NCBI RefSeq assembly: GCF_013315695.1
Contig: NZ_CP054353.1
Source: Escherichia coli
Lineage (GTDB): Bacteria > Pseudomonadota > Gammaproteobacteria > Enterobacterales > Enterobacteriaceae
Length of the DNA: 64,000 bases
Direction: 5' to 3' (one strand)
Part shown: positions 23,554-23,948 of the stretch, one piece after another
Layout: each line of letters starts with the position of its first letter
Position numbering within the stretch: the stretch's first letter is position 1
Program-made: the position numbers and the translations under genes
Notes under the pieces: model-generated
What the model saw: only the letters and a program-made list of their open reading frames with translations
Told to the model about the DNA's origin: nothing
Database searches by the model: none

Positions 23554-23590
23554 AAAACCCCGTTTGTTGGCACCAAGCGGGGTTTTGTGT
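23554..23590 (+). terminator. Intrinsic terminator-like hairpin between the endolysin and the downstream lysis genes
   Basis: AAAACCCCG-(15 nt)-CGGGGTTTT followed by GTGTTT. Confidence 0.6.
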
Positions 23591-23619
23591 TTCTGACCTT
23601 GAGTAAGGCAAGGGAGAAC

Positions 23620-23802
23620 ATGGCGAAGTATAAACGAATTCTGTTGAGGTTGACTATGAAAAACGGCCTTGAACTGAAAGCGCCTGTAACTGATGACATC
23701 AGCAGAGCACTGGCTTTTGCCATTAAGTGGGTGGCGGTCGGTGTTGCTGTGTCCCCGATGCTGTATGGGCTGGCAAAACTGGTCATTGCGTTGAAATCAT
23801 GA
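23620..23802 (+). CDS. Small protein with a C-terminal TM helix, 60 aa
   Basis: An AAGGGAGAAC RBS precedes the ATG. The translation is [60 protein letters not shown]. Confidence 0.5.
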
Positions 23803-23816
23803 AGGGAGGATTAAGC

Positions 23817-23948
23817 ATGCCAGACAAACTCATAACGCTGGCGAAGATCCTCTGTGTAATTGTCGGCATTTCATTTTCACTAATGCTGGTTGCTCTTTTT
23901 CTTTCCATGGCCTGGATGATGTTGTCTTCGTCGGGGTTGCTGGGGTGA
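23817..23948 (+). CDS. Tiny single-pass membrane protein, 43 aa
   Basis: A strong AAGGGAGGA RBS lies 6 nt upstream. The translation is [43 protein letters not shown]. The stop overlaps the Rz GTG start. Confidence 0.5.

Follow-up and report, generated by a model that had tools for sequence, protein, structure and literature searches.

A horizontally mobile module with a terminator-like hairpin and tiny membrane-protein genes between the endolysin and spanin genes of lambdoid prophages

We analyzed a 64,000-nucleotide stretch of Escherichia coli DNA (RefSeq assembly GCF_013315695.1, contig NZ_CP054353.1), hereafter called the window, and focused on the segment that separates the endolysin gene R from the spanin genes Rz/Rz1 in a prophage lysis cassette. 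This segment carries a hairpin followed by two very short open reading frames (ORFs), ORF1 and ORF2, all three of which were found by sequence check exactly where an initial annotation, made from the letters alone, had placed them. We found that the hairpin and ORF1, with or without ORF2, form a lower-GC accessory module that moves horizontally among lambdoid lysis cassettes. In the compared sequences, the module consists of a terminator-like hairpin and a conserved leader, followed by between one and four tiny genes for inner-membrane proteins. It is common, catalogued as hypothetical yet uncharacterized, and of the same general kind as other small membrane proteins that ride in lysis cassettes. 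The new points are the structure of the module, the probable existence of two ORF1 isoforms, the lack of dependence on any particular partner and the connection with cassettes that have a 60-residue lipoprotein but no spanins.

About 320 related loci (designated by L numbers) were collected, and they yielded 42 distinct coding sequences for ORF1 and 35 for ORF2. In pairs taken across E. coli, Salmonella and other contexts, the ratio of nonsynonymous to synonymous substitution rates (dN/dS) of ORF1 ranged from 0.09 to 0.34 at dS values of 0.18 to 0.99. For ORF2, dN/dS was mostly 0.15 to 0.6, with dS up to about 1. The relatives have retained the frames, stops and start signals of both ORFs. Both ORFs are genuine genes under purifying selection, and both were conserved across the collected loci in several cassette contexts. 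It is thus highly improbable that they represent annotation noise or decaying remnants, with the hairpin being a chance inverted repeat. The proteins are indeed tiny, lack a Pfam family and have a narrow taxonomy (Escherichia and Salmonella; 23 cluster representatives), and truncated and fused copies exist. However, this explanation is contradicted by the selection analysis, with dN/dS well under 1 at dS up to about 1, by the conservation of frames, start signals and junctions across contexts, by the retention of the hairpin with compensatory change and by the presence of the module in propagating phages (PhiR5_2 and the PhiR12 series).

The initial annotation had described both products as single-helix membrane proteins, and this description held. 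The AlphaFold2 (AF2) model of ORF1 consists of a basic amphipathic helix (residues 2 to 14), a loop and a long helix (residues 25 to 59), with a predicted local distance difference test score (pLDDT) of about 88, and its best 19-residue Kyte-Doolittle window reached 1.88. Because seven K/R residues precede the long helix and only "KS" follows it, ORF1 is predicted to adopt an N-in, tail-anchored topology. ORF2 was modeled as one helix spanning residues 2 to 38 (pLDDT 89.5) and had a Kyte-Doolittle value of 2.89. The linker motif MKNGLExDAPV of ORF1 is conserved. In addition, a G-x-x-x-S pattern is invariant within the helix of both proteins and could be a helix-packing motif.

Both proteins are already present in databases, although without an assigned function. 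ORF1 corresponds to the "hypothetical" RefSeq protein WP_001151823.1 and to PHROGs 1115, 4493 and 3246, and ORF2 corresponds to WP_023143934.1 (in a 49-residue version, also "hypothetical") and to PHROG 4906, all four PHROGs being of unknown function. Pfam yielded no family for ORF1 and just a sub-threshold DUF3930 match for ORF2, NCBIfam and PADLOC gave nothing significant for either, and literature searches found no paper on them. Families of small toxins or immunity peptides, which the initial annotation had considered, matched neither protein. The ORF1 family is small: a profile search run exhaustively against 1.84 billion cluster representatives returned 23 hits, word-indexed searches recovered Escherichia and Salmonella proteins only, plus one record labeled Pseudomonas (all "hypothetical"), and the profile found no relative among the GTDB species representatives. 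In the distant members, the MKNGLExDAPV motif and the helix are retained, and the C terminus reads ...ALKS or ...IRWW. As their DNA shows, they have also conserved the basic N-terminal extension (x-Y-K/R-R-I/F-L-x-R-L-T/S) together with a start for it.

The hairpin that opens the module is more than a chance structure. Its stem has 13 pairs including the flanking A/U pairs, 6 of them GC pairs, and closes a loop of 7 nucleotides (nt); the GC core reads CCCCGTTTG/CAAGCGGGG and the 3' tail TTTTGTGTTTC. The folding energy is -18.9 kcal/mol (z = -2.4), a value equaled by 3 of 200 shuffled sequences. The features by which an intrinsic terminator is recognized in sequence, namely a GC-rich stem, a short loop and a 3' U-tract, are all present, and the minus strand folds as well, with the upstream A-run providing a good U-tract. 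Among 74 distinct upstream sequences, representing three contexts in which the upstream gene encodes an R21-like lysozyme, a Salmonella lysozyme or a glycoside hydrolase family 108 (GH108) endolysin, the hairpin mostly lies 33 nt 5' of the ORF1 start; it lies further away in variants with an inserted 8-codon leader ORF. The stem base A4C4G/CG4U4 is nearly invariant in the 14 hairpin variants, whereas the sixth pair varies among G-C, U-G, A-U, U-A and G-U. Each lineage has re-invented the distal part of the stem and the loop, and the distal stems still pair. This conservation with compensatory change indicates that the structure is kept in the relatives. In these comparisons, the hairpin belongs to the ORF1 module, of which it forms the left end. 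Rfam returned nothing above threshold, the best match being the rimP leader on the minus strand (E = 0.5). We rejected a second, small hairpin in the ORF1 leader as a candidate for sequestering the Shine-Dalgarno (SD) sequence: it has variants without compensation, and the sense-strand fold had a z score of about 0.

Lambdoid lysis cassettes are generally assumed to hold the textbook set of holin, endolysin and spanins. In the Qin prophage of E. coli K-12, rrrQ overlaps rzpQ by 4 bp with nothing between them, so that ORF1 and ORF2 are accessory and, as proposed initially, represent an insert relative to cassettes in which endolysin and spanin genes abut. The insert also differs in composition, since S, R and Rz have a GC content of 55%, while ORF1 and ORF2 have 48% and 47%. 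The YdfR-like and TonB_C genes of the window are similarly low, and the core cassette is thus interleaved with lower-GC inserts.

Among the close relatives, the module sits directly 3' of the endolysin gene in at least four different cassettes, whose enzymes represent no fewer than three unrelated families, and it is followed either by Rz/Rz1 or by the 60-residue lipoprotein gene. The most frequent order, found in about 150 of the fetched loci (those with an R21-like lysozyme), is S21 holin-(YdfR)-R-hairpin-ORF1-ORF2-Rz/Rz1. About 75 loci of the Shiga toxin (Stx) phage type have R-ant-ORF2-Rz/Rz1: they diverge from the window at about position 23550, where an ant (antirepressor) module without hairpin and ORF1 begins, followed by the ORF2 homolog and then Rz. 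ORF2 is thereby kept directly 5' of Rz in most of the Stx phage loci sampled. A third group of about 40 loci is devoid of Rz and reads Holin_8-Holin_3_7-GH108-hairpin-ORF1-ORF2-60-residue lipoprotein. Besides these, we found an HP1-type holin-lysozyme-hairpin-ORF1-Rz order in Salmonella, R-hairpin-ORF1 homolog-Rz in phage GER2, and, in the complete genome of phage phiSTEC1575-Stx2k, an M15 peptidase gene followed further on by an ORF1 homolog and the lipoprotein gene. Three or four different tiny ORFs for transmembrane proteins lie from R to Rz in L218 (2814-3363) and L004 (612-1175), where ORFs of 50 and 49 residues or one of 70 residues accompany a 47-residue ORF1 variant and a 28-residue truncated ORF1 paralog ending in IRWW. 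Finally, a 45%-identical ORF1 homolog abuts Rz in a Salmonella prophage remnant.

The module is also frequent and is among the commonest arrangements in E. coli prophages. When 5426 complete E. coli genomes were compared with the 600 bp from 23400 to 24000, 2136 gave a match, and 989 (about 18% of all) contained at least 80% of this segment. In E. coli genomes, 6768 places with the segment were found. Among 308 classified IMG/VR and GenBank loci, a sample biased to near relatives, 306 had the close ORF1 relative behind an endolysin gene. At 83 to 92% identity, ORF1 accompanies S21-type, HP1-type, Holin_8 plus Holin_3_7 and other holins, both signal-anchor-release (SAR) and cytoplasmic endolysins, and cassettes with or without Rz/Rz1. 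This makes a classical antiholin, one of the roles raised by the initial annotation, unlikely.

The junctions within the insert are tight. Only 14 nt, including the GGGAGG, separate the ORF1 stop from the ORF2 ATG, and an alternative 49-residue form of ORF2 would start at 23799, in an ATGA overlap with the ORF1 stop; this form, for which most relatives use a GTG start codon, is the one annotated by the Prokaryotic Genome Annotation Pipeline (PGAP). Fused ORF2-ORF1 entries of 83 residues also occur in databases. At the other end, the ORF2 stop (TGA, 23946-23948) shares bases with the GTG at 23945, which is likely the Rz start (N terminus MNINRM...), because the ATG used by Rz of Stx phages, which is ancestral, reads ATA here (23951-23953). 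The overlap of ORF2 and Rz reported in the initial annotation is thus retained with GTG as the likely start, while PGAP places the Rz start at the ATG at 23960.

ORF1 probably gives rise to two isoforms of 60 and 48 residues, which would differ by a +4 N-terminal helix, since both an internal SD sequence and Met13 are conserved. None of the 42 distinct coding sequences lacks Met13. Three codons before it, Arg10 is encoded by the rare codon AGG at 12 of the 13 loci taken as representatives, which creates a GAGG located 6 to 7 nt 5' of the Met13 ATG (9 nt in two loci). L164 encodes V-E-A at this site, yet keeps GGAGG, and the copy in the Salmonella remnant has the Met13 start alone. Codons 1 to 18 showed no synonymous difference at all in lysis-context pairs, in contrast to a proportion of synonymous differences (pS) of about 0.5 in codons 19 to 60. 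The internal ribosome binding site (RBS) accounts for part of this constraint. As a side observation, the tRNA-Arg(tct) encoded upstream in the window reads AGA/AGG, rare codons that occur at the conserved Arg10 and Arg29 of ORF1.

The same region contains a candidate sigma-70-like promoter on the minus strand, with the -35 hexamer over ORF1 codons 11 to 13 and the -10 hexamer over codons 3 to 5. A blind scan found it at the same offset in the window and in three distant loci, and our own scan found it in 11 of 13 loci. Such a site would fit a small membrane toxin checked by a cis-antisense RNA of about 75 nt, which would cover the ORF1 start and SD sequence and end at the bidirectional hairpin, as in a type I toxin-antitoxin system or a timer. 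We consider this improbable. The minus-strand site (23656-23627) is found again, with its offset unchanged, in L310, L311, L314, L164, L319 and L320, and its recurrence in 6 of 7 diverged lineages had a P value of about 6e-4 under a null that preserves protein and codon usage by resampling synonymous codons and that ignores shared ancestry. The good minus-strand U-tract of the hairpin, the predicted fold of the antisense RNA (z = -3.3), the synonymous silence of codons 3 to 18 compared to the later codons, and an 8-codon leader ORF coupled to the GTG start in the Salmonella and GER2 variants point in the same direction. On the other hand, the lineages with the site are not independent, the site scores only 9/12 in the window, sites of this kind are expected by chance in equal number in 5 kb, and its hexamers fall on conserved residues (KYK, T/S-M) as well as on the internal RBS. 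Since they are largely dictated by these codons and the RBS, we did not accept the antisense promoter as shown. Furthermore, the minus-strand terminator is absent at the distant loci, there is no sense promoter and thus no addiction logic, no Rfam family reached threshold, and a tail-anchored protein with a basic N-terminal domain is unlike typical type I toxins.

hok/sok is a well-known example of type I toxin-antitoxin loci. ORF1 shares with it a small hydrophobic product, a possible short cis-antisense RNA over the initiation region and, in some variants, a coupled leader ORF, but it differs in having no toxin promoter or Rfam match, in its protein architecture and in the candidate status of its antisense promoter. 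The leader ORF (M-G/C-R-E-V-L/C-S-L-stop) has a strong SD sequence and is inserted 5' of the ORF1 homolog in L162 (about 2978-3004) and L320 (about 2473-2499). Its stop overlaps the GTG start of the homolog, whose own SD sequence, the second of the two, is enclosed in a small hairpin. The 26-nt insert that carries this leader ORF is absent from the window.

Gene order and established lambda biology place the hairpin-ORF1-ORF2 insert, by inference, within the late operon that depends on the antiterminator Q, and a promoter scan of positions 21000 to 26000 found no plus-strand promoter-like site. We tentatively propose that ORF1 and ORF2 are late-expressed inner-membrane accessory factors that act at the lysis step without being specific for a holin. 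According to this proposal, the hairpin would stop RNA polymerase that has not been modified by Q, while Q-modified polymerase would read through, so that ORF1, ORF2 and the spanins would be silent in the lysogen and made only in the lytic cycle. ORF1 and ORF2 would then be translated late, alongside the spanins, ORF1 in its 60- and 48-residue forms from two starts, and the products would insert into the inner membrane. There, with a host or generic target in the membrane, they may tune the timing or the efficiency of final lysis. A host or generic target is proposed because the module has no constant phage partner, be it a holin, an endolysin type or a spanin.

The lysis-modulating role raised by the initial annotation therefore keeps the argument of position, behind an endolysin gene and ahead of Rz/Rz1 or the lipoprotein gene, but it is weakened by the distant relatives of ORF1. 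Two of these follow tail-fibre genes (L164, where the gene is bracketed by two hairpins, and L310), those of L311-313 lie in a myophage between the baseplate hub and a gp25-like gene, and one is located in a siphophage tail module (L314). Those of L316-318, by contrast, lie directly 5' of Rz in the prophage remnant, which recurs in very many assemblies of Salmonella. Because of the relatives in tail-fibre, baseplate and tail modules, the ORF1 family is better seen as mobile cargo than as a fixed lysis component. These relatives, one of them moron-like between two terminators, weigh against the proposed role, as do several other points. We found no named family or paper linking ORF1 or ORF2 to lysis, and the K-12 Qin cassette, with a similar R, works without them. 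The argument from position is one of guilt by association, in a region known to accumulate cargo, namely ant in Stx phages and, in the window, the YdfR-like and TonB_C genes. No partner co-varied with ORF1/ORF2, hence no mechanism can be read from co-occurrence, and both termination at the hairpin and the use of the two ORF1 starts are predictions from sequence.

The main competing explanation, which we consider rather unlikely but which deserves attention, is as follows: ORF1 and ORF2 could be moron-type cargo unrelated to lysis, of use to the lysogen or to the infecting phage in some other manner, for example through superinfection exclusion at the inner membrane or the modulation of a host membrane function, with the gap between endolysin and spanin genes being a tolerated insertion site. 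The concept of the moron (Juhala 2000; Cumby 2012) has a precedent in HK97 gp15, a small inner-membrane protein that confers superinfection exclusion and is encoded by a late-operon insert with horizontal spread and deviant GC (PMC3594210). The gp15 gene has its own promoter and a downstream terminator, is expressed from the prophage, and its product is YebO-related (PMC3594210). Our module shares the extra DNA and the deviant GC of morons, being absent in Qin, replaced by ant in Stx phages and having 47-48% GC compared to 55% in the flanking core genes. The mosaicism of the slot between R and Rz is extreme, as it may hold ORF1, ORF2, the truncated ORF1 paralog, the transmembrane ORFs of 50, 49 or 70 residues in varied orders, or ant. 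An intact ORF1 homolog is kept in the widespread Salmonella remnant. Moreover, distant ORF1 relatives occupy tail-operon positions as gp15 does, and the position of the L314 gene, 5' of a putative tape-measure gene, resembles that of gp15.

Unlike gp15, however, the module in the window has no promoter in the 33 nt between hairpin and ORF1, and its terminator lies upstream rather than downstream, for which reasons expression from a repressed prophage is not expected; of the loci compared, the L164 member does have flanking hairpins. In addition, neither a YebO- or gp15-like family (Pfam) nor a PADLOC system was detected, and the close relatives lie 3' of endolysin genes in nearly all classified loci, subject to the near-relative bias of that sample.

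For the preferred reading of ORF1 and ORF2 as accessory lysis factors, we regard the Mu releasin gp25 as the nearest functional analogue, by analogy of design. Gp25 (DUF2730) is a late, non-holin accessory lysis protein with a one-helix inner-membrane tether, virtually no periplasmic part and a cytoplasmic domain (PMC9239132). Its family is found with SAR and cytoplasmic endolysins alike (PMC9239132). ORF1 has the same general design and follows a SAR-type lysozyme here, but it has no DUF2730 match in Pfam and no sequence relationship to gp25. The orientations also differ: gp25 is N-out/C-in with an acidic cytoplasmic part of 73 residues, while ORF1 is predicted to be N-in and tail-anchored with a net basic cytoplasmic part of about 29 residues.

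Two starts in one frame are known from holin/antiholin genes such as lambda S107/S105 and phage 21 S21-71/68. ORF1 resembles these in its two predicted in-frame starts, in the greater N-terminal positive charge of the longer product and in its late placement within the lysis cassette. It differs from them in the length of the extension (12 residues, +4, instead of 2 to 3 residues), in its single C-terminal helix and in the lack of a charged C-terminal tail. Moreover, neither ORF1 nor ORF2 matched a holin family significantly in Pfam, PHROG or NCBIfam (ORF2 left a weak trace to PHROG holin 13249, E = 0.08), and ORF1 did not co-vary with holins. P2 LysA and mycobacteriophage Ms6 Gp5 are non-essential small accessory membrane proteins that are encoded in the lysis cassette and shift lysis timing, and P2 lysA is flanked by the endolysin gene K on one side and by lysB/lysC, which encode spanins, on the other. 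These proteins are not known to be related in sequence to ORF1 and ORF2, and LysA is larger with several predicted helices.

The cassettes without Rz deserve separate consideration. Their 60-residue lipoprotein (65-residue ORF; lipobox LVGC; PHROG 7528, of unknown function) occupies the spanin position in L184 (3355-3537) and L319 (2655-2837, i.e., OQ243220 22465-22647), and its gene directly follows the ORF1-family/ORF2 genes in about 40 GH108-type cassettes and in phiSTEC1575-Stx2k. In the latter genome, tblastn with Rz/Rz1 queries from three loci gave nothing below E = 0.1, and no lipobox ORF other than that of the lipoprotein was present in the lysis region. A bolder extension of our proposal would be that the ORF1 family, with or without ORF2, represents a new class of dual-isoform tail-anchored micro-protein acting at the envelope-disruption step. 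In the GH108 group and phiSTEC1575-Stx2k, which have no recognizable Rz/Rz1, it would take the place of spanins jointly with the lipoprotein, which always follows it. In the window, it would act as a modulator of Rz/Rz1 and thereby influence when phage particles and, in the case of Stx phages, toxin are released. We consider this a long shot. The periplasmic parts of ORF1 and ORF2 are predicted to have 2 and 7 residues, and neither has a lipobox, so that neither qualifies as a spanin. We also rejected, on geometric grounds, the idea that ORF1 and ORF2 make up a minimal two-component spanin with the lipoprotein, since periplasmic parts of this length are too short.

Shiga toxin leaves the cell through phage lysis. 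If the micro-proteins shift lysis timing or efficiency, they would thus affect burst size and Shiga toxin release, and a partner-independent type of accessory would join the short list formed by antiholins and the Mu releasin. If they are cargo unrelated to lysis, the module would still be a clean example of small membrane-protein genes moving between late operons.

Table 1. Positions of the module and of neighboring features in the window
Feature	Position	Strand	Remarks
Q antiterminator	16403-17224	+	Pfam Antiterm 2e-54
tRNA-Met and tRNA-Arg(tct)	17368-17618	+	3' of Q, as in Stx phages
NanS-p-type sialate esterase, then DUF826 gene	between tRNAs and holin	+	
S21-type class II holin	about 21783-21998	+	
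YdfR/DUF1327-family protein, 297 residues	22000-22893	+	between holin and endolysin; 46% GC vs 55% in neighbors
Endolysin R (lysozyme)	22930-23463	+	Pfam Phage_lysozyme 3e-24; PHROG endolysin
Non-coding spacer traveling with R	23464-23553	+	common to window and Stx phage locus L003 up to about 23550
Hairpin with U-tract	23554-23596 (stem 23554-23586)	both, terminator-like	left end of the mobile module
ORF1 leader, conserved	23604-23619	+	SD-like AAGGGAG (23610-23616); consensus TTTCTGRCCYTGRGTAAGGCAARGGAGAACATG kept across most contexts
ORF1, 60 residues	23620-23802	+	predicted tail-anchored membrane protein
Candidate sigma-70-like antisense promoter	23627-23656	-	-35 TAGTCA, 18-nt spacer, -10 TATACT; score 9/12
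Internal SD and Met13 start of ORF1	23646-23658	+	GAGG (23646-23649), ATG (23656-23658); candidate 48-residue isoform
ORF2, 43 residues	23817-23948	+	predicted single-helix membrane protein; GGGAGG 7 nt upstream
Rz i-spanin	23945-24418	+	Pfam Phage_lysis 2e-47; PHROG 13
Rz1	24171-24356	+	embedded in Rz; lipobox VSAC
TonB C-terminal-domain lipoprotein	24729-25055		3' of Rz

The window represents the late region of a lambdoid, Stx-phage-like prophage with all genes on the plus strand (Table 1), in the order DUF968, RusA, Q, tRNAs, NanS-p, DUF826, S21-type holin, YdfR/DUF1327, R, insert, Rz/Rz1, TonB_C lipoprotein and Nu1/gpA terminase. No stx genes were seen from the tRNAs to nanS-p. The N terminus of R (MNTKIKYGLSAAVLALIAAGAPAP) is weakly hydrophobic and of the SAR type, and the E-x8-D-x5-T motif can be read in its translation. 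We rejected a 17-codon ORF in the spacer between R and the hairpin as a gene, its ATG at 23493 being absent in relatives. The motif GCAGAATATTTTGCTGAAAAAT occurs after the R stop (about 23467-23488) and again just 3' of the lipoprotein gene in a GH108 cassette (L184, about 3552-3573), i.e., at module boundaries. The YdfR/DUF1327 gene is a truncated pseudogene in the near-identical RefSeq locus L001. Downstream of Rz, the TonB_C lipoprotein gene lies at the position of bor in lambda, and the label "Rz-like spanin" that PHROG 1267 gives to its family looks like a misnomer. Finally, a 2026 preprint places the prophage Pas small RNA genes (pasA/pasC) in the gap between the esterase and holin genes, upstream of the holin and not in the segment between R and Rz, and in this gap of the window (about 21090-21780) our scan found terminator-like hairpins at 21263-21282 and 21716-21745.

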